A stretch of DNA of 64,000 bases from a virus. Made by a program: the position numbers and the translations under genes. This document shows, piece by piece, positions 16,337-47,030 of this stretch. How positions within the stretch are numbered: position 1 is the stretch's first letter; each line of letters opens with the position of its first letter. The stretch is taken from IMG/VR virus record IMGVR_UViG_3300028024_000105, positions 1-64,000 of that record; one strand, 5' to 3'. The notes beneath the pieces are model-generated. The model was not told where the DNA came from. It saw nothing but the letters and a program-made list of their open reading frames with translations, and ran no database searches.

Positions 16337-16368
16337 GGGGCCGAGGGGTTCGAAACCTCTCGGCCCCA
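16337..16368 (+). ncRNA. tRNA minihelix (acceptor stem plus T arm only)
   Basis: GGGGCCG-AGGGG-TTCGAAA-CCTCT-CGGCCCC-A: 7+5 bp with a T-loop. Confidence 0.55.
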
Positions 16369-16520: not shown

Positions 16521-16594
16521 GGGGTCCTCGTTCAACAGAAGGACCGCTGCTTTGCAAGCAGCAGATGCGAGTGCGATTCTCGCGGACTCCACCA
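16521..16594 (+). tRNA. tRNA-Ala(TGC)
   Basis: GGGGTCC/GGACTCC with G3:U70, anticodon arm GCTGC-TTTGCAA-GCAGC, encoded ACCA; atypical T loop TGCGATT. Confidence 0.9.
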
Positions 16595-16700
16595 AATTTC
16601 GGCGAGCGGTGCACGAACAAGAGCCACAATAAGGTCTCCGCACCTGTGGCCAGTAAAGGATGCACTCACGGACTCGCCGCAATATTTTGTCCAAGTAGTT

Positions 16701-17050
16701 ACCAACGAAGACGACGAACGACACACGACAGACGAAACCACCACACATCTAGCGCTGGCTTAGGAAGCTCCGGCGCATCTTCAGGAGCTACCTACCTGGG
16801 CCGCGTACGTCGCGGCTCGGTCGTGCTCTTTCCAAAAGCAAGACAACGGATACAGACCCCTTCCAGACGAACGGATGAAACCGCCGTCGTAGTGGTCCGC
16901 GAGGATCAGTGGGGGTTGTGCTGGCGCTGTACGCGGCGGTAAAGCTACACCTGGACGCTTCCTTCGGGACGGCACGACAAAATCTATACCCGACACACTT
17001 GGGACATCCCCTCAAGTCTGTGGCGTTGTCTGAACAAATTCACGCCTTCC
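16701..17050 (+). ncRNA. Putative structured ncRNA
   Basis: No credible ORF; starts 5 nt after GTCCAAG; A/C-rich 5' tract followed by many hairpins. Confidence 0.5.
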
Positions 17051-17837: not shown

Positions 17838-18500
17838 ATGAATCTCGGCGACCGCATGAAGGCGTACGAGACGGCGACGCACTTCGTCCTGCCCGTCCGC
17901 ATGCCGGTGATCATCCGTCTGGACGGCAAGGCGTTCCACACACTGACCCGGGACTGCCTGAAGCCGTTCGACAGCACGCTCCGGCGGGCCATGGTTGAGG
18001 CGACGCTGGCTCTCCTGGACGAGATCCCGGCCCGGGTCGCCTACCACCAGTCCGACGAGGTCTCGCTGCTCCTGATCGACTACAACCTGTTCAACAGCCA
18101 GCAGTGGTTTCGCGGGCAGATCCAGAAGATGGCCAGCGTCGCGGCGTCGATCATGGGCGCCGAGTTCAGCATGAACTGGGGCAGCCCCGGCTACTTCGAC
18201 GCCCGGGTGTTCGCCGTTCCCGAGCGAGACGTCGAGAATTACTTCCTGTGGCGCCAGCGCGACGCCATGCGGAACGCCATCAGCGGCGCGGCGCAGGCGT
18301 ACTTCCCACCCGCCGCCCTGCACGGCCTGGACACCACGGCGATGATCGTCCTGCTCGACCAGATCGGCGTCACCTTCGAGGAGTACCCGGCCTGGTACCG
18401 GCGCGGCACGCTCGCGATGCGCGGACTCGCCGTCTCGGCGCCGGATTTCTCCGGGCCGGAGCACGTGATCCAACAGTTCCTCGAAATCGAAGAGCAGTAG
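17838..18500 (+). CDS. tRNA(His) guanylyltransferase Thg1-like protein (3'-5' polymerase)
   Basis: RMKAYE, IIRLDGKAFH, QSDEVSL, FDARVF, YFLWRQRDA.RN. Confidence 0.93.
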   Translation: MNLGDRMKAYETATHFVLPVRMPVIIRLDGKAFHTLTRDCLKPFDSTLRRAMVEATLALLDEIPARVAYHQSDEVSLLLIDYNLFNSQQWFRGQIQKMASVAASIMGAEFSMNWGSPGYFDARVFAVPERDVENYFLWRQRDAMRNAISGAAQAYFPPAALHGLDTTAMIVLLDQIGVTFEEYPAWYRRGTLAMRGLAVSAPDFSGPEHVIQQFLEIEEQ

Positions 18501-18665: not shown

Positions 18666-19094
18666 ATGAAGCGATTCGCGATGTTCCTGGGTCTCCTGCT
18701 CGTCCTGACGATGTTCAGCGGCTGCACCGCCGTCCCGCCCGATCCGGGCCCGAACGCCCACGTGAAGTTCGAGGAATTCAAGACGACCGGCACGCACACG
18801 ATCAACAAGGAGACGTCGGCGGAACACGACCTGGTCGTGACCTTCTTCGACACGTCGGGCGTGATGCTCGCGTCGATCAAGTGCGAGCACGGCATGACGC
18901 TGCTGAACGGATCGCAGGCGGCCGACCTGTACAAGCGCCTGACCGCCGGTCGCGACAAGCCGCGAACCCCGCTCACGAATCCCGAACAGGCCAGCTACGC
19001 GCCGAAGACTGGAGCAGCTCGAATGTGTGAGCTGTGCGAGATCGCGGCGATGCGCCACGCGGGCTGGCGGCTGTCGAACCGAACCGACATCTGA
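18666..19094 (+). CDS. Predicted lipoprotein
   Basis: MKR, hydrophobic stretch, FSGC lipobox; GGAGG SD. Confidence 0.65.
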   Translation: MKRFAMFLGLLLVLTMFSGCTAVPPDPGPNAHVKFEEFKTTGTHTINKETSAEHDLVVTFFDTSGVMLASIKCEHGMTLLNGSQAADLYKRLTAGRDKPRTPLTNPEQASYAPKTGAARMCELCEIAAMRHAGWRLSNRTDI

Positions 19095-19200: not shown

Positions 19201-19539
19201 ATGAAAGACGTGACCGAGACGCTGGCCCTGGGGATGGCCGACCTGAGCACCAAGGAGCTGCGGAACCTGAAGTTCCACCTGGAGAAGAAGTCCCCGATCA
19301 TCTGCGGGAAGGATGCCAATCTGTTCGCGAAGCCCGGATGCGGCTGTCCCGCGACGCTCGCGGCGGCCCGCCGCCTGCCCAAGGACACGACGCGCTGGGG
19401 GTCCGGCTCCGTGAGCGACGCGTGGGAAAAGATCACGAACGCCACGGGCGGCAACAAGTTCTACAACGCGCTGCGCAAGGCCCAGCCGCGCCACGTCCGC
19501 GCCGCCATCGAGAAGGCCCTGGAGCTGCGCGGCATCTGA
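19201..19539 (+). CDS. Hypothetical protein
   Basis: Coding-like codon usage, SD. Confidence 0.55.
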   Translation: MKDVTETLALGMADLSTKELRNLKFHLEKKSPIICGKDANLFAKPGCGCPATLAAARRLPKDTTRWGSGSVSDAWEKITNATGGNKFYNALRKAQPRHVRAAIEKALELRGI

Positions 19540-19549
19540 CGAGGACAGC

Positions 19550-19858
19550 ATGAACGAGAACAAGCCCGCTCCCGAGCTGATGCGGATCGTCGACAAGGAC
19601 CGCATCGTGCCCATCAAGCACGGACCGCCGAACAAGGTGAAAGGTCCGGGTCTCCTGGCGCGCATCCACGCCGCCAAGAGCGTCGACGAGGTCGACAGCT
19701 TGGTGCGCGAGGGAAGCCTCTACCGTGGGGCGTCGATCCGGACCCGTCAGCGCTGGGTCCGCGCGGCAGCCAACCGGAAGGTGGCCATCACCGCCCCGGC
19801 GCCGCAGCCCAAGGCCGAGCAGCCGAAGAAGGACAAGAAGCCACCCAAGCCGAAATAG
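19550..19858 (+). CDS. Basic hypothetical protein
   Basis: GAGGA SD; Lys/Pro-rich tail. Confidence 0.55.
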   Translation: MNENKPAPELMRIVDKDRIVPIKHGPPNKVKGPGLLARIHAAKSVDEVDSLVREGSLYRGASIRTRQRWVRAAANRKVAITAPAPQPKAEQPKKDKKPPKPK

Positions 19859-19882
19859 ACGCATCTCGCGTCACCTTCGGCC

Positions 19883-20015
19883 GACCGCAGGGCGAGCGCC
19901 GTATCAGCGGCCCGCGCCCGGAAGAGTGCAATAGAGCCGCAACGTCTACTGATAATAGCGCGCGGTTCACTGGTCTTGAAAGCCAGACTCGCGGGATCGT
20001 AACCCGCTGCGGTCA
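19883..20015 (+). tRNA. Atypical tRNA-like gene, Ser(TGA) anticodon, greatly expanded D arm
   Basis: GACCGCA/TGCGGTC acceptor; CTGGT-CTTGAAA-GCCAG; T arm GCGGG-ATCGTAA-CCCGC; about 80 nt between acceptor and anticodon arms. Confidence 0.6.
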
Positions 20016-20022
20016 AATTTCT

Positions 20023-20123
20023 GGGGTCGTGGCGAAAGAGGGCAAACGCGGGGTGCGCCCTGGACCCTGTCTGAGCAGGTCGACCTGAACTCGGACTTGA
20101 TGGTTCGACTCCATCCGGCCCCA
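20023..20123 (+). tRNA. Atypical class II (Leu-like body) tRNA-like gene with degenerate anticodon arm
   Basis: GGGGTCG/CGGCCCC-A; D arm GCG-AAAGAGGGCAAA-CGC; T arm GATGG-TTCGACT-CCATC; very long variable arm. Confidence 0.65.
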
Positions 20124-20356
20124 ACAAAATTAAGCGTGTCGGTCTCGCGGAGTGAGTGCGGCAAGGAGTGGCCCAAGCCGTGCAATGCCCTGAAAAGGAC
20201 TCCCGACCACCCGAGACCGGCAATCTTGGCCTGCGTTGCAGCGTGGGCCGGTGACCGTGATGCTGGAGCAAAGGGCGCCGCACAGGCTCGTGTCGATCAT
20301 CACCCGGTTCAAGCGCGCGAGATCCTGACGCCGGGGGCGGCCACGGTCACCAGAAT

Positions 20357-21049
20357 TTAGTCGCCGAGGAACTCGAGGAGCGCGACCGGTCCGACCGAGA
20401 AGGTGATGTGCGGAAGAGGATGGACTCGCTGCCCGTCCAAGAGCCACACCTGGACGAGGACGCCGACGAGCCGCCACTTGCCGTCGATCTGCACGAAGAC
20501 ACCGCCGCCGCTGTTGCCGTAGATCGCGTTCGCCGACTGCCGCATCAGGCCGCCCTCGTTGAAATCGCAGAGCATGCCCGACGTGATGTGCGTGGTGTGA
20601 ACTTCGACGGGGTAGCCCGAGATCAGGCACTGCTGGTAGATCGTCAGCTCCCGCTGGTACTGCTTCTTCGTGATCACAGAGGCGGCCGAGCCCCAGACCG
20701 GCATGGTCTCGACCAGCGCAAGATCGGCCTTCGGGTCGACCTTGACGACCTTGCCGAGCGCAGTGATCACTTCTCCGGACATGCCGTCGATGTAGGACAC
20801 CTTCACCGACTTGTAGGTCCCGACCACGTGCTTGGCGGTTACGATCTGTGCGACCGTATCCGTCATCCGGACTACGATGCCCGAGCCGCCCCCGCCGTTG
20901 GAGGTGTCGATCTTCACCGTGCAGGCCGCCACTTCCTTGTTGATCTTGTAGGCCGCGCAGACCGCCGTGGGCGCCTGGAAGCACCTGTCGACGGCGGCCA
21001 CAGAGAGAAACGCCATCAGAATGAGAGTCCAAATGTGCATTTTCTTCAT
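20357..21049 (-). CDS. Secreted trypsin-like serine protease
   Basis: Signal peptide; TAKHV, DLAL, GNSGG catalytic triad. Confidence 0.88.
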   Translation of the reverse strand: MKKMHIWTLILMAFLSVAAVDRCFQAPTAVCAAYKINKEVAACTVKIDTSNGGGGSGIVVRMTDTVAQIVTAKHVVGTYKSVKVSYIDGMSGEVITALGKVVKVDPKADLALVETMPVWGSAASVITKKQYQRELTIYQQCLISGYPVEVHTTHITSGMLCDFNEGGLMRQSANAIYGNSGGGVFVQIDGKWRLVGVLVQVWLLDGQRVHPLPHITFSVGPVALLEFLGD

Positions 21050-21226: not shown

Positions 21227-21799
21227 ATGGCAGAGATCGGCAGCATTGTTTCCGCGCGTCCGACGTTCGAAGATCGGCTGAAGAGGTACAACGGGTGGCT
21301 GCACAAGGTGGCGGCCCACCACTCGGGCACGCATCCCTACGGGGGTGAGGACGACATCTTTCAGGACCTATGCCTGGTCCTCTTCAAGTGCCACGAGAAG
21401 TACGTCACCGAAACTGGTGGCTGCCTCTCATTCCCCGGCGGCGAATTCCACAACCTGTTCGCCACGGCGGTCGCCAACCAGATCGCATCGCACTTCCGTC
21501 TCAAGATGCTGGAGCACGACAAGAAGATGTTCCGCATCGACGCCGCCAAGGCGCGCGGAACGGTCGGCAACGGCGGTCGCGAGCAAGGCTCTGAACCCGA
21601 CGTCGTCGCTCTCGCGTCGGCCGTCCGGACCGAGGAGTCCGAAGACTTCTACCGCGCCGGGATCTTCGATCTGATCGGCGAGCTGGACCCCGAGACGGCC
21701 AAGGTCGTCATGGAGGCGCTGGAGCCGCAGAACCGGGGGCCGAAGGCCGGGCGCGCGGCGGCCTACCACAAGGTCCGCAACAAGCTGAACGATCTGTGA
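21227..21799 (+). CDS. Sigma-factor-like protein (region 2-like)
   Basis: Y.GWLHKVA...EDDIFQDLCL.LF.C..KY...F..LF..AV.N resembles sigma region 2. Confidence 0.6.
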   Translation: MAEIGSIVSARPTFEDRLKRYNGWLHKVAAHHSGTHPYGGEDDIFQDLCLVLFKCHEKYVTETGGCLSFPGGEFHNLFATAVANQIASHFRLKMLEHDKKMFRIDAAKARGTVGNGGREQGSEPDVVALASAVRTEESEDFYRAGIFDLIGELDPETAKVVMEALEPQNRGPKAGRAAAYHKVRNKLNDL

Positions 21800-22182
21800 T
21801 CAAGCCGGACTGTTACGGCAGGCTGCACGATCCGAAGAACACATGGTGCAAGGGCTGCGCGCTCTTCCTACCCTGCGCCATCGCTTCCGCCAAGGCGCCG
21901 CCGGGCGACATTGCCGAAATAGGCCACATCACGAGGAGTCCAAGCGAACGCCCCAACCTATTCAAGGAGGGCTCGCGCGCCTGGGCTGCCTGCCGGGCCG
22001 CGAACCTGAAAGGCGGGACGTTCCGAGAATCCGAGATCCTGCCGCTGTACATGGCGACCTGCCGTGCCTGGGGCATCGAGCCCGGCAGCGCGGAGCGAAA
22101 CGTCCACCACGCCGTCGTGCAAATGGTGAAGCGGGGCGTCCTACGGAGAGTACGGAAATCCTACATGTCTCATGCTGACTGA
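21796..22182 (+). CDS. Hypothetical protein, N-terminal Cys cluster, possible winged helix
   Basis: CYG..D....CKGC....C. Confidence 0.55.
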   Translation: MIKPDCYGRLHDPKNTWCKGCALFLPCAIASAKAPPGDIAEIGHITRSPSERPNLFKEGSRAWAACRAANLKGGTFRESEILPLYMATCRAWGIEPGSAERNVHHAVVQMVKRGVLRRVRKSYMSHAD

Positions 22183-25100
22183 CGCCGACTTCACCGACCT
22201 GCACGTCCATTCCAGTTTCTCTCTCCTAGACGGCGCCGCGAATCCCGAACAGTTGCTCGAGGCCAGCCAGCGTCTGGGCCGAAAGCACATGGCCGTGACG
22301 GATCACGGGAACGTCGACGGCTGGCTCCGATTCCAGAAGGCCGCCAAGAAGATGGACGTCAAGCCCATCTTCGGCATCGAGCTGTTCATGCTCGAGAACT
22401 TCGAGGAGCGCCACACCGGCAAGCCAAAGAACCTCCACCTGACGGCCATCGCCAAGACCGAGCAGGGCCTGGGCAAGCTCGTGCAGGCGTGCGGCTTCGC
22501 GAACATGGAGGGGATGGGAAAGAGCGGCTACGCCGCCCGGCCGTTCCTTCCGATGGACTACCCCATCGTGAACAAGTGGCCCGGCGACGTGATCATCATG
22601 ACCGGCTGCGCCAGCTCGCCTTTCTGGAACGCCGCCGACGGGATCGAGCTGCTCGGCTACTACGCCGACGCGTTCAAGGGCGACCTGTACGCGGAGATCA
22701 TGCCGAACGAGGAGTTCGAGCTGCAGAAGACGATCAACGCGTCGGCGATGCAGGCCGCGAGCTACTTCGGGATCAAGCCGGTGGTCACCACCGACATCCA
22801 CTACATCTCGCCCGAAGACAGCGAGTTCCACGAGGTCGTCATCGGCCTGTCCCAGAAGTACATGACCTGGAGCAACCCGAAGCGCTGGAAGTTCGAGTCG
22901 CACAACAACTACGTCCACAACATCACGCAACTAGTCGAATCCCTCATGCGCATGGGCCTGACCGAAGAGCAGGTCCGGCAGATGGTGTTCAGCACCAGCG
23001 AGATCGCCGAGAAGACCATCCACAAGATCCACCAGCCGACCATCAAGTTGCCGCCAGTGATCGGAGACATCAGTGAAGAAGAAGAGCGAGAGCGGTTCCT
23101 ACAGCTCGTCCTCGACGGGCTCCGCACCCGAGGCGTTGCGAACACGCCCGGGTATCTCGAGCGCGTCGCGGCCGAATACGACATCATCGCTCCCAAGGGC
23201 TTCGTCCGGTACATGCTCATGGTTTGGGACGTGGTGCGCTGGGCCAAGTCGCACGGCATTCTTATCGGTCCGGCGCGCGGTTCTGTGGGTGGGAGCCTGG
23301 TTGCGTTTGCTCTTGGAATAACCGACATCGACCCGATCAAGTACCGGCTCTGGTTCGAGCGCTTCATCGACCCCGAGCGCATCGACATGCCGGACATCGA
23401 CATCGACATCGAGGACCGCAACCGACACCTGGTCGAGCAGTACCTCAAGGAGAAGTACGGCCAGTGGAACGTCGCGCACGTCTCGACCTTCGCGTCGATG
23501 CTGGGCAAGATGGCGCTGAAGGACGTCGGCCGCCTGTTCGAGGTCCCGCTCGCCGAAGTGCAGAAGATGTGCAACTGCATCATCCACGCACACGAGTCGG
23601 ACGTCCGAGCGCACCTGACGATTCAGGACACCATCGCGAGCGGCGACGCGACGGCCGTCGAGTTCCAGAAGAAATACCCTCATGTCGTCCACTTCGCCCA
23701 GAAGCTCGAGGGGCAGGTCCGTGGGTGCGGCATCCACGCGGCCGGGTTCGTGATCTCCGACGAGGACCTGCGCACGTCGGCGCGCGCCTACCTAGTCACC
23801 CGGCGCGACAAGGTCACGATCAACTGGGACAAGAACGACGCCGAATCCATGGGCTTCGTCAAGCTCGACCTGCTCGGGCTGCAGACTCTGTCGGCCGTCG
23901 CCGAGGCATCGCGTCTGATCGAGGCGCGCCACGGACGCAAGATCGACTTCACTCAGCTCCCCCTGGATGACCCCAAGACGTACGAGATGATCCAGCGCGG
24001 CGACACGGTGACCTGCTTCCAGATCAACACGCCCAGCATGCAGAGGTACTGCGCGAAGCTGAAGCCCGAGAACTTCGAGCACCTGGCCGCCATCACCGCG
24101 CTGTGGCGCCCCGGCCCAATCCAGTCCGGCGCCGCAGACATGTACGCCAAGTGCAAGAACGGCCTGGAGCCTGTCCACTACGCCAGCGACGCCTTCAAGA
24201 GCATCACCGAGATCAGCTACGGGCAGATGATCTATCAGGAGCAGGTTGCCCAGATGCTGATGAAGCTGGCGGGCTACACCTACGCGCAGGCCGACAAGGT
24301 CCGCAAGATCGTGTCGAAGAAGGGCGGCGTTCAGGCGTGGGACGACGAGGAGCCCAAGTTCGTGGCGGGCTGCGAGAAGATCGGCCTGCTGAACCCCGAT
24401 CAGGCACACGAGCTGTGGCAGTCCTCCAAGATGTTCGCGCTCTACGCGTTCAACCGTGCGCACTCGGTCGGCTACGGCATGCTGGCCTACTGGACCGCGT
24501 ACCTGAAGGCGAACTACCCGGCCGAGTGGCTCTGCTCGTTCCTGAACTACGGCAACGCGGACCGCGAGGATCTGAAGACCGGGGAGATCAACCGAGATGT
24601 TGCTCTGCGCGAGGCCCTGCGCTCGGGCATCGAGATCCTGGTCCCCGACATCAACGAGTCCGACGTGATCTGGACCGTGGCAACGACCAAGCACAACAAG
24701 CCCGCCCTTCGGGTCGGCCTGCAGGACATCAAGTTTGTCGGCGAGACGGCTGTCGAGGAGATCCAGAAGCTGAAGTCCCGTACCCGCCAGATCGAGACGC
24801 TCGAGAAGTTCGTGCTCGAAGGGGTCGACCGGCGCTGCTGCAACAAGAAGGTGATCAAGGCTCTATTCTACTGCGGCGCTTTCGATCAGATCATCTCGCC
24901 CGACATCTACGACCGCTGGGTGAAGCAGTACGACCAGATGTACGACACCATGGAGAAGCCCAAGAAGCGGGCCGAGCTGCTTGCGACCGCCGTTCCTGAA
25001 GGTGAGAAGCAGGAGATCATCGCGCGCGAGCGCAACATCTTCCTGCGGTTCGATCCTCTCGCCATCGACGGTGCGAACGCGGCCGAGCGCATGGCCAAGA

Positions 25101-25798
25101 TCCTGGGAGGCACGCTCGACCTGGACGCCGAGGAGCCCTTCATCCAGCGTGGCGAACTGAAATGGCCGGTCTCCGATGCTACTCTTGGATTGCTGCCCGG
25201 CGCCAACGGCGTGCTCGGCGAACGTCCGGCGGACGTCCGGCAGATCCGCAAGGACACCAAGGACTGCCAGCTCTGCGACCTGCGTGGCTCCTGCAAGGCA
25301 CCCGTGCCCGTCGACCCGGGCCAGCTCGACATCATGGTGGTGGCCGAGGCGCCCGGGAAGAACGAGGACAAGGTCGGCAAGCCGCTGATCGGAGACTCCG
25401 GAAACGTGCTCTGGCCTGAGCTGGAGCGTCTCGGTGTCTCTCGCGAGATGGTCTACGTCTCGAACTCCGTCAAATGCCTGCCCCCGGCGAAGACCAAGCC
25501 CACGCCCGAGCAGATCGACGGTTGCCCGTGGCTCGAGAAGGAGATCAAGGCCATCAAGCCGAAGACCATCCTGGCGCTGGGCAACTCCGCGCTCTACTAC
25601 TTCACGGGGAAGGAGAAGGGCATCATGGAGATGAACGGCAAGACGGAGTGGAACACCAAGGCGAACGCGTGGGTGACCTTCTGCATCCACCCGGCCAATC
25701 TGCTGTACGCGCGCGAGGCCGAGGAACTGGCGTCCCGGGAGCTGATGTTCCGCGAGGCGTTGACCGAATTCGCGCGGGTCATTTTTCAATTTGCATGA
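22172..25798 (+). CDS. dnaE: DNA polymerase III alpha subunit with C-terminal family-4 UDG domain
   Basis: PHP DLHVHS/TDHG; GPARGS, FERFIDPER..MPDIDID, KLDLLGL, YAFNRAHS; C-terminal CxxC..C, AEAPG, NSVKC.PP, HPA. Confidence 0.95.
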   Translation: MLTDADFTDLHVHSSFSLLDGAANPEQLLEASQRLGRKHMAVTDHGNVDGWLRFQKAAKKMDVKPIFGIELFMLENFEERHTGKPKNLHLTAIAKTEQGLGKLVQACGFANMEGMGKSGYAARPFLPMDYPIVNKWPGDVIIMTGCASSPFWNAADGIELLGYYADAFKGDLYAEIMPNEEFELQKTINASAMQAASYFGIKPVVTTDIHYISPEDSEFHEVVIGLSQKYMTWSNPKRWKFESHNNYVHNITQLVESLMRMGLTEEQVRQMVFSTSEIAEKTIHKIHQPTIKLPPVIGDISEEEERERFLQLVLDGLRTRGVANTPGYLERVAAEYDIIAPKGFVRYMLMVWDVVRWAKSHGILIGPARGSVGGSLVAFALGITDIDPIKYRLWFERFIDPERIDMPDIDIDIEDRNRHLVEQYLKEKYGQWNVAHVSTFASMLGKMALKDVGRLFEVPLAEVQKMCNCIIHAHESDVRAHLTIQDTIASGDATAVEFQKKYPHVVHFAQKLEGQVRGCGIHAAGFVISDEDLRTSARAYLVTRRDKVTINWDKNDAESMGFVKLDLLGLQTLSAVAEASRLIEARHGRKIDFTQLPLDDPKTYEMIQRGDTVTCFQINTPSMQRYCAKLKPENFEHLAAITALWRPGPIQSGAADMYAKCKNGLEPVHYASDAFKSITEISYGQMIYQEQVAQMLMKLAGYTYAQADKVRKIVSKKGGVQAWDDEEPKFVAGCEKIGLLNPDQAHELWQSSKMFALYAFNRAHSVGYGMLAYWTAYLKANYPAEWLCSFLNYGNADREDLKTGEINRDVALREALRSGIEILVPDINESDVIWTVATTKHNKPALRVGLQDIKFVGETAVEEIQKLKSRTRQIETLEKFVLEGVDRRCCNKKVIKALFYCGAFDQIISPDIYDRWVKQYDQMYDTMEKPKKRAELLATAVPEGEKQEIIARERNIFLRFDPLAIDGANAAERMAKILGGTLDLDAEEPFIQRGELKWPVSDATLGLLPGANGVLGERPADVRQIRKDTKDCQLCDLRGSCKAPVPVDPGQLDIMVVAEAPGKNEDKVGKPLIGDSGNVLWPELERLGVSREMVYVSNSVKCLPPAKTKPTPEQIDGCPWLEKEIKAIKPKTILALGNSALYYFTGKEKGIMEMNGKTEWNTKANAWVTFCIHPANLLYAREAEELASRELMFREALTEFARVIFQFA

Positions 25799-46790: not shown

Positions 46791-47030
46791 GAGCGAGAAG
46801 CCGACGTAACCCGGGGCTGCACCTGTACGTAGCTGCGCACCGTACAGCAGGGCCTGCCAATACCGGGGTACATCGCTCAAAGACAGCTCGTCGGGCGCGA
46901 ACGCGGGCGAAAACGGCCGTAGCGTGACAGCCGGAGAGACGGCAAAAATTCGCCCTGGTGGTGGCTTTCTGCTGCTTCACCACCTTCGCCGCGTTGGAAG
47001 CCGAGCAGCGTCACGACGCGGACAGGGTTG
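46791..47030 (+). ncRNA. Putative structured ncRNA(s)
   Basis: Predicted TSS G46791 equals the first base of closing stem GAGCGA/TCGCTC(46873-78); further hairpins to about 47030. Confidence 0.55.

Follow-up and report, generated by a model that had tools for sequence, protein, structure and literature searches.

The stretch of DNA considered here (the window) covers positions 1 to 64,000 of the 96.8-kb IMG/VR viral contig IMGVR_UViG_3300028024_000105, a phage contig from a soil metagenome with a G+C content of ~63%. On its plus strand, just beyond the last gene of an operon that begins with a Thg1-like gene, lies a 133-nt element (19883-20015), which departs from the layout of a class-I tRNA only in its D region. 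The reading that we favor, though with distinct reserve, is that it is a tRNA-derived gene for a predicted non-decoding tRNA mimic, which would be cut from the 3' end of the transcript of the Thg1-like operon. Among the options raised in a preliminary description of this DNA, that of a decoy or mimic comes nearest to it.

Outside its D region, the element keeps the canonical tRNA register: the acceptor stem measures 7 bp, the anticodon arm 5 bp with a loop of 7 nt (U33, R37) and the T arm 5 bp, with no mismatch across the 17 stem pairs (Table 1). The preliminary description was thus right about the perfect acceptor, anticodon and T stems, the 4-nt variable loop and the A discriminator. The anticodon, UGA, is at 19977-19979, and the T loop, with A54 and U58, is a variant of the usual one. 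The canonical D arm, a 3-4-bp stem whose loop contains G18G19 and which is set off by 2 nt from the acceptor stem and by 1 nt from the anticodon stem, is lacking; in its place are exactly 80 nt (19890-19969), where about 80 had been estimated earlier.

The element is a real unit, given its rare layout, its non-coding site, its fold z-score and a trailer, AATTTC, that it has in common with the tRNA-Ala of the phage. When both strands of the 96.8-kb genome were scanned for an anticodon arm and a T arm that are separated by a variable loop of 4-5 nt and have a 7-bp acceptor partner no more than 150 nt away, three sites were recovered, namely the tRNA-Ala, the tRNA-Arg and the 133-nt element, as against 0.08 sites per genome with the same layout in 60 dinucleotide shuffles. 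The element lies in a gap of 498 nt, which runs from the last plus-strand stop codon to the end of the protease gene and is non-coding: the open reading frames (ORFs) overlapping the element or the gap show third-position G+C values (GC3) of 0.64-0.68, versus 0.86-0.94 for real genes, and have no Pfam match, so that coding ORFs across the element region can be ruled out for want of both a codon signature and a domain. The fold z-score of the element is -4.24 for the plus strand and -2.76 for the minus strand, and the plus-strand fold model holds three G.U pairs, which point to an RNA made from that strand. The trailer AATTTC also follows the CCA of tRNA-Ala (16595-16600), and two of the three copies of AAATTTC in the window stand at these two 3' ends.

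It is, equally, not a working standard tRNA: neither ARAGORN nor Rfam calls it, no deletion restores a D arm in it and it has no encoded CCA. ARAGORN made no call for it with default, intron or lowered settings, and Rfam gave no match at the gathering score (29 bits for the tRNA family RF00005), the best being a partial tRNA match (16.4 bits, E = 2; 19955-20008, model positions 7-64) that skips the D arm. Set against the canonical class-I tRNA, it is alike in having the acceptor, anticodon arm, 4-nt variable loop, T arm and discriminator in register, and differs in the 80 nt that stand for the D arm, the missing CCA, the absent ARAGORN call, the sub-gathering Rfam score and an anticodon, UGA, that belongs to a class-II family. 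Both canonical tRNAs of the window (tRNA-Ala and tRNA-Arg) encode CCA, which is absent from the element and from el2, a second tRNA-like element beside it; no CCA-adding enzyme was found in the phage genome. A tmRNA is ruled out, as ARAGORN -m returned none and the third acceptor pair is C3-G70 rather than G3:U70. That last pair is present in tRNA-Ala(UGC) (16521-16594, plus strand), which encodes CCA and has a D loop, AACAGAA, without GG and a T loop UGCGAUU; therefore, the normal tRNAs of this phage too have a non-standard elbow.

In the minimum free energy (MFE) fold, at -61.9 kcal/mol, the 80-nt domain forms two hairpins, H1 and H2. H1 abuts the acceptor stem without a spacer and exposes UAUCAG (19902-19907) in its loop region, while the 7-nt loop of H2, CUGAUAA (19949-19955), reads like an anticodon loop of the Ile(GAU) type. 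Of the two internal pairings proposed earlier, GCGGC (19907-11) with GCCGC (19937-41) is present in the sequence; TATCAG (19902-07) and CTGATA (19949-54) are indeed complementary, but as a nested helix they are disfavored by folding, as the structure that contains it reaches -50.7 kcal/mol and thus costs 11. Between the loops of H1 and H2 the complementarity extends over 6 nt, and in the model a loop-loop (kissing) contact can coexist with both hairpins.

The anticodon loop, CUUGAAA, is that of a Ser(UGA)-type tRNA, and the anticodon arm shares a stretch of 19 identical nt with an annotated tRNA-Ser of the Klebsiella jumbo phage KP13-7. Bacterial seryl-tRNA synthetase (SerRS) requires a long variable arm and G73. 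The element has instead a 4-nt variable loop and A73, and likewise differs from bacterial and phage tRNA-Ser(UGA) in having no Ser-type D arm. The clash between anticodon and identity pointed out in the preliminary description is therefore real and, by the established SerRS rules, the element is not a serine tRNA. In 172 Mycobacterium phage records, the annotated tRNA-Gly(GCC) has this same T arm, and the loop of the arm, AUCGUAA, is found also in the tRNA-Asp neighboring that tRNA-Gly, e.g. in Mycobacterium phage Erdmann. Since annotated tRNAs share it, this odd T loop is not a defect, and the match hints at an actinobacterial host.

The two adjacent ORFs have no close relatives in IMG/VR, and the protease found only itself among 5.8 billion proteins; nor was there a match in IMG/VR to the exact DNA pattern of anticodon arm plus T arm or to DnaE, the product of a gene downstream of the element, used as a single query. 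An alignment of DnaE run against GTDB genomes and JGI metagenomes returned only relatives of at most 38% identity, blastn of the element region against GenBank phages gave no match, and tblastn of DnaE and of the Thg1-like protein none at 60% identity or above. One relative was found via the DnaE protein with its fused uracil-DNA-glycosylase (UDG) domain: a 93.7-kb genome with terminal repeats (record G001, the same as L002; L003 is identical in the region). The comparison thus rests on one independent relative, two sequences in all. Its DnaE is 68% identical, and the genomes are collinear, with 66-76% nucleotide identity over 37.6 kb. The gene order is kept: a homolog of the 102-aa ORF, the gap, the convergent protease, the sigma-like gene, the 128-aa ORF (window 21796-22182) and DnaE.

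The corresponding gap of the relative, 326 nt long, holds one tRNA-like element of 120 nt (L002 7903-8022), with the acceptor GACCGGA/GCCGGTC, the T arm GCAGG-TTCAAAT-CCTGC and the discriminator G. Two pairs have changed in a compensatory manner between the window element and this one, namely 6:67 from C-G to G-C and 51:63 from G-C to A-U. The 91-nt interior of the relative's element cannot be aligned with that of the window element and has no anticodon arm, and MAFFT alignments, whether of the element or of the entire intergenic region, were uninformative outside the acceptor and T arm. Thus, both phages have kept an oversized element at the same site, and only its acceptor/T-arm half shows signs of selection. 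A potential H-type pseudoknot inside the relative's element was judged to be due to chance; it is sterically unlikely, as its third loop would be 1 nt. The relative also encodes, on the plus strand, a 94-nt tRNA-like element with 37 nt in the place of the anticodon arm (L002 4687-4780; Rfam 34.2 bits) and a 71-nt tRNA with the anticodon UCA and an 8-nt T loop (L002 4924-4994), which may be of the opal-suppressor type.

Oversized tRNA-like elements of this kind recur beyond the two phages. A degenerate pattern of the T arm and the acceptor 3' strand also recovered a 106-nt element, without an ARAGORN call, from an unrelated AT-rich phage contig. A broader IMG/VR pattern, combining a canonical T loop with an acceptor 3' strand ending in CCGGTC, gave 53 distinct sites, 16 of which are ordinary tRNAs, while 12 have a 7-bp partner only at 96 nt or more and no ARAGORN call; with the control acceptor ...CTGGCC, there were 29 ordinary tRNAs and just one oversized site in 84. 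The oversized set (L258, L260, L263, L266, L273, L278, L286, L300, L302, L303, L311, L312 and others) spans 88-188 nt and is not called by ARAGORN; its members share the acceptor GACCGG(N)/(N)CCGGTC along with a canonical T arm, most have A73, and many carry a Leu-type D arm, GCGGAATTGGTAGACGC. A canonical anticodon arm is absent from the canonical place in all 22 other oversized elements, the window element standing alone in this respect among the 24 examined. The window element resembles the set in its oversized span, its acceptor/T-arm upper half, the A73 that most members have and an element-specific interior, and differs in having C6-G67 for G6-C67 (GACCGC, five of the six positions of GACCGG), a variant T loop and no Leu-type D arm, whereas its counterpart in L002 has the GACCGG acceptor, the canonical T arm and the span of at least 88 nt without an ARAGORN call that define the set. 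The relative's element therefore belongs to this recurrent oversized set, with the window element an unusual relative of it. Distant DnaE-bearing phage contigs yielded further tRNA-framed elements, 115-159 nt long and each with a canonical T arm (L013 17361-17475 and 19945-20103; L023 13661-13785; L070 3747-3893; L076 16823-16951), one of them with a normal D arm and a ~40-nt insertion in the anticodon region.

Among described RNAs, the closest in layout, and in layout only, are RNAC (species 1) and RNAD (species 2) of phage T4, likewise a pair of RNAs 6 nt apart and located where a tRNA or tRNA-like block ends at its 3' side. In T4, rnaC (139 nt; 70908-71046) and rnaD (119 nt; 71053-71171) directly follow tRNA-Arg; the sizes of 139 + 119 nt compare with 133 + 101 nt here, and A/T-rich trailers are found in both. 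T4 rnaC has a canonical T arm beside an imperfect terminal helix, large internal hairpins and no anticodon arm, whereas in the window element the 7-bp acceptor is perfect and the anticodon arm canonical; the T4 RNAs are, moreover, AT-rich, a strong difference in base composition, and show no similarity by eye, the comparison having been made without alignment. They have been detected as late RNAs (PMC9697503), and their roles are unknown (PMC3014915, PMC9697503). The YrlA-type Y RNAs, partners of Ro60/Rsr, are comparable in being non-decoding, in having a tRNA-like module, in their presence in bacteria and phages and in a context of RNA repair, provided here by the Thg1-like neighbor (PMC7824862). 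Membership of that family is ruled out, as there is neither a TROVE/Ro gene nor an Rfam YrlA match nor a long Ro-binding stem. No relevant phage tRNA with an expanded D arm was found described in the literature.

The element starts 24 nt past the last stop codon of the plus-strand operon. As no promoter-like site was found in 19400-20700, the 133-nt element and the 101-nt el2 probably form the tail of this operon. In el2, the D arm is of the Leu type, the variable arm has ~10 bp, the T arm is canonical and the discriminator is A73, but a 4-bp stem bearing a 9-nt loop, GCGCCCUGG, stands in place of the anticodon arm; ARAGORN calls el2 only as a 'Val with a 5-nt intron'. The bases CGCCCUG of this loop could pair with CAGGGCG in the first element (19888-19894), a match of marginal significance; the words TCTGAGCA/CTCGGAC common to el2 and the relative's element are not significant.

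Table 1. The 133-nt element, its parts and its surroundings (window coordinates)
Feature	Position	Strand	Remarks
Acceptor 5' strand, GACCGCA	19883-19889	+	7/7 Watson-Crick pairs with TGCGGTC 20008-20014
Hairpin H1	19890-19919	+	outer stem GGGCG/CGCCC, inner GCCG/CGGC; MFE fold
14-nt linker GGAAGAGUGCAAUA	19920-19933	+	MFE fold: GAGU pairs with variable loop ACUC
Hairpin H2	19934-19968	+	7-bp outer stem GAGCCGC/GCGGUUC; inner 5 bp with bulge; MFE fold
Anticodon arm	CTGGT 19970-74, loop CTTGAAA 19975-81, GCCAG 19982-86	+	5 bp; U33, A37
Variable loop ACUC	19987-19990	+	4 nt, class-I type
T arm	GCGGG 19991-95, loop AUCGUAA 19996-20002, CCCGC 20003-07	+	G53-C61, U55, C56 kept
Acceptor 3' strand TGCGGTC + discriminator A	20008-20015	+	followed by AAT; no encoded CCA
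Trailer AATTTC	20016-20021	+	6-nt spacer before el2; AAATTTC occurs 3 times in the window
el2, second tRNA-like element	20023-20123	+	101 nt; 6 nt downstream of the first
Thg1-like gene	17838-18500	+	Pfam E = 3.8e-25; PHROG E = 1.5e-66
Three small ORFs	18666-19094, 19201-19539, 19550-19858	+	
Trypsin-like protease	20357-21049	-	convergent
Sigma-like gene	21227-21799	+	
DnaE fused to a UDG domain	22172-25798	+	

These observations lead to the proposal that the element would be transcribed as the tail of the plus-strand operon, and that its acceptor/T-arm minihelix would be recognized by RNase P and the 3' trimming enzymes of the host. Processing is predicted to free a stable RNA of ~133 nt together with its 101-nt neighbor, and thereby to set the 3' end of the upstream mRNA. 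The freed RNA would read no codon and, because it has A73 and no long variable arm, would not be charged by SerRS; the H1 and H2 loops would form a kissing pair bracing the 80-nt domain. It may then occupy a protein that reads the tRNA shape or a Ser(UGA)-type anticodon loop, e.g. a host tRNA-targeting nuclease, and so act as bait rather than as an adaptor.

Several points weigh against this proposal. The intact anticodon arm is what a decoder needs, and the other oversized elements have none, so that the window element may not work as they do. As regards a partner protein, no Ro/TROVE gene was found in the phage genome, and the Thg1-like gene is absent from G001, the region at 14.7-21.6 kb being a variable one between conserved blocks. 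The occurrence of the element without Thg1 in G001 also rules out an obligate link between the two. The evidence for the two compensatory changes comes from two sequences (n = 2), and pair 7:66 is broken in the L002 element. Under relaxed rules, the relative's type of element is no rarity across the genome, with 12 matches versus 8.6 per shuffle; its weight thus lies in its position and shared sequence. The interior by itself is modestly structured (z = -1.95), and the complementarity of its two loops, reached in 3 of 1500 shuffles, was spotted post hoc. Finally, no RNA data are listed with the stretch, the sole run containing it being a soil DNA metagenome.

The alternative that survives best, though we regard it as unlikely, is that the element is a functionless relic, i.e. 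a dead class-I phage tRNA whose D arm was destroyed by an insertion or rearrangement of 60-80 nt. This would account for an abnormality confined to the D region, with the remainder still scoring as a partial tRNA, and for the missing CCA, which the two working tRNAs have. No bacterial isoacceptor combines UGA with a class-I body, a mismatch that drift would be expected to produce; the anticodon loop would be one change from a Thr UGU loop, and the locus lies in the variable, fast-changing part of the genome. A relic is harder to reconcile with stems that carry no mismatch, with an insert that is itself structured and has complementary loops or with a trailer motif shared with tRNA-Ala. Moreover, the relative's element is also oversized, and its acceptor and T stems have been kept by way of two compensatory changes despite the unalignable interior; that the stems were kept while the interior diverged implies long-term selection on the upper half.

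Next in standing, and likewise improbable, is a pure processing signal, in which the acceptor/T minihelix would serve as an RNase P/Z cut site setting the mRNA 3' end, the interior would be filler and the released RNA would have no role. tRNA punctuation of this type exists, as in the t-elements of plant mitochondria. The position of the element close behind the last stop codon, the lack of a promoter-like site and the conservation of only the upper half between the two phages all speak for such a signal. A cut site, however, requires neither an intact anticodon arm nor complementary loops, and a tandem pair of tRNA-like units exceeds the need of one cut. In the relative, leader and trailer lengthen the terminal helix to 10 bp, which is unfavorable for RNase P.

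A bolder possibility, which we consider doubtful, is that the RNA is active in a way that needs its anticodon arm: either as a bait that would present an authentic tRNA-Ser(UGA) anticodon stem-loop, on a kissing-braced scaffold that cannot be charged, to an anticodon nuclease or a tRNA-modifying enzyme of the host, or as a decoder with a novel D domain that would place an amino acid other than serine at the rare UCA codon.

That the element is a working decoder with a novel D domain, completed by a host-added CCA, charged by some synthetase and reading UCA, seems more doubtful still, and the mischarged tRNA envisaged in the preliminary description is unlikely. The perfect anticodon arm (U33, A37) 4 nt from the T arm, unique among the oversized elements, has a probability of ~0.002 by chance as estimated from the shuffle rates, and the T loop is that of annotated actinophage tRNAs. 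Like the phage tRNA-Arg(UCU), such a decoder would serve a rare A-ending codon, UCA making up 2% of Ser codons and AGA 2% of Arg codons. In one version, isoleucyl-tRNA synthetase would charge it on the strength of the H2 loop CUGAUAA plus A73 and C4:G69, the latter two of which we take to match the known identity elements of E. coli tRNA-Ile; against this, the H2 loop is probably engaged in pairing with that of H1. The decoder would further have to work with no D arm and no G18G19 partner for its T loop, with an 80-nt domain at the inner corner of the L, without an encoded CCA and without the Ser identity elements. Its counterpart in the relative has no anticodon arm, and there are just 29 UCA codons in 77 phage genes to be read.

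Least probable, by a wide measure of doubt, is a pre-tRNA with a D-region intron that is spliced to a normal tRNA, although the insert is compact, structured and limited to one arm. All segments with ends in 19884-19965 were deleted in silico and each of the 3003 variants was run in ARAGORN; 21 passed, all with a 3-bp D stem containing a wobble or mismatch and none with a canonical D loop, so that the D-loop intron suggested earlier finds no canonical D arm in any deletion. The relative's element is likewise not reducible to a tRNA, and 80 nt are far too short for a group I intron; to our knowledge, bacterial and phage tRNA introns are group I, lie in the anticodon loop and are much longer. 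The preliminary description had also allowed for a shorter, degenerate tRNA with its 5' strand, AGCCGCA, at 19935. This was rejected: the strand pairs worse (A.C at 1:72, G.U at 2:71), is accepted by ARAGORN only once 14 nt are deleted and represents a 6-of-7 match of which an estimated ~0.8 per element is expected by chance. Such second 5' strands occur in both phages (GACAGGC at L002 7956 in the relative) and were judged to be due to chance. An attP-like 3' half of a host tRNA was also rejected, as the element retains its 5' acceptor strand, the phage appears from its genome to be lytic and no integrase stood out among the nearby ORFs looked at.

Other features of the window were recorded alongside. 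Part of the remaining gap is occupied by an imperfect long hairpin, CGGTCTCG ... CGAGACCG (20141-20218, plus strand), and a terminator-like site overlapping it on the minus strand (20220-20195) could terminate transcription of the protease gene. Within the first non-coding block, a minihelix at 16337-16367 (plus strand) matches the mascRNA-menRNA model (22.7 bits, E = 0.38, below the gathering score) and 16857-16977 (plus strand) matches EGFOA RNA at 29.6 bits, versus a gathering score of 37.7, while a CyVA-1 RNA match at 46952-47028 (plus strand; 49.4 bits) is above its Rfam gathering score of 41.4. The fusion of DnaE to a C-terminal family-4 UDG is kept in a clade of uncultured phages, with more than 25 proteins of 42-77% identity carrying PF03167 together with the DnaE domains; the closest DnaE relatives are P0003 (77%), P0004 (70%), P0013 and P0005-P0011.

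That phages encode tRNA-sized look-alikes beside their tRNA genes has been clear since T4, although what these do is still unexplained. In the usual design of such look-alikes the upper half is kept and the anticodon is lost, whereas here only the D arm has been replaced. If its RNA is made and is stable, the element would separate recognition of the anticodon, as expected of a bait for defense enzymes that cut tRNAs, from a need for the upper half only, as expected of a processing handle, two questions that mimics without an anticodon cannot separate. More broadly, acceptors of the GACCGG type recur in phage contigs that are not related to one another, which suggests that this stem has a sequence-specific reader.

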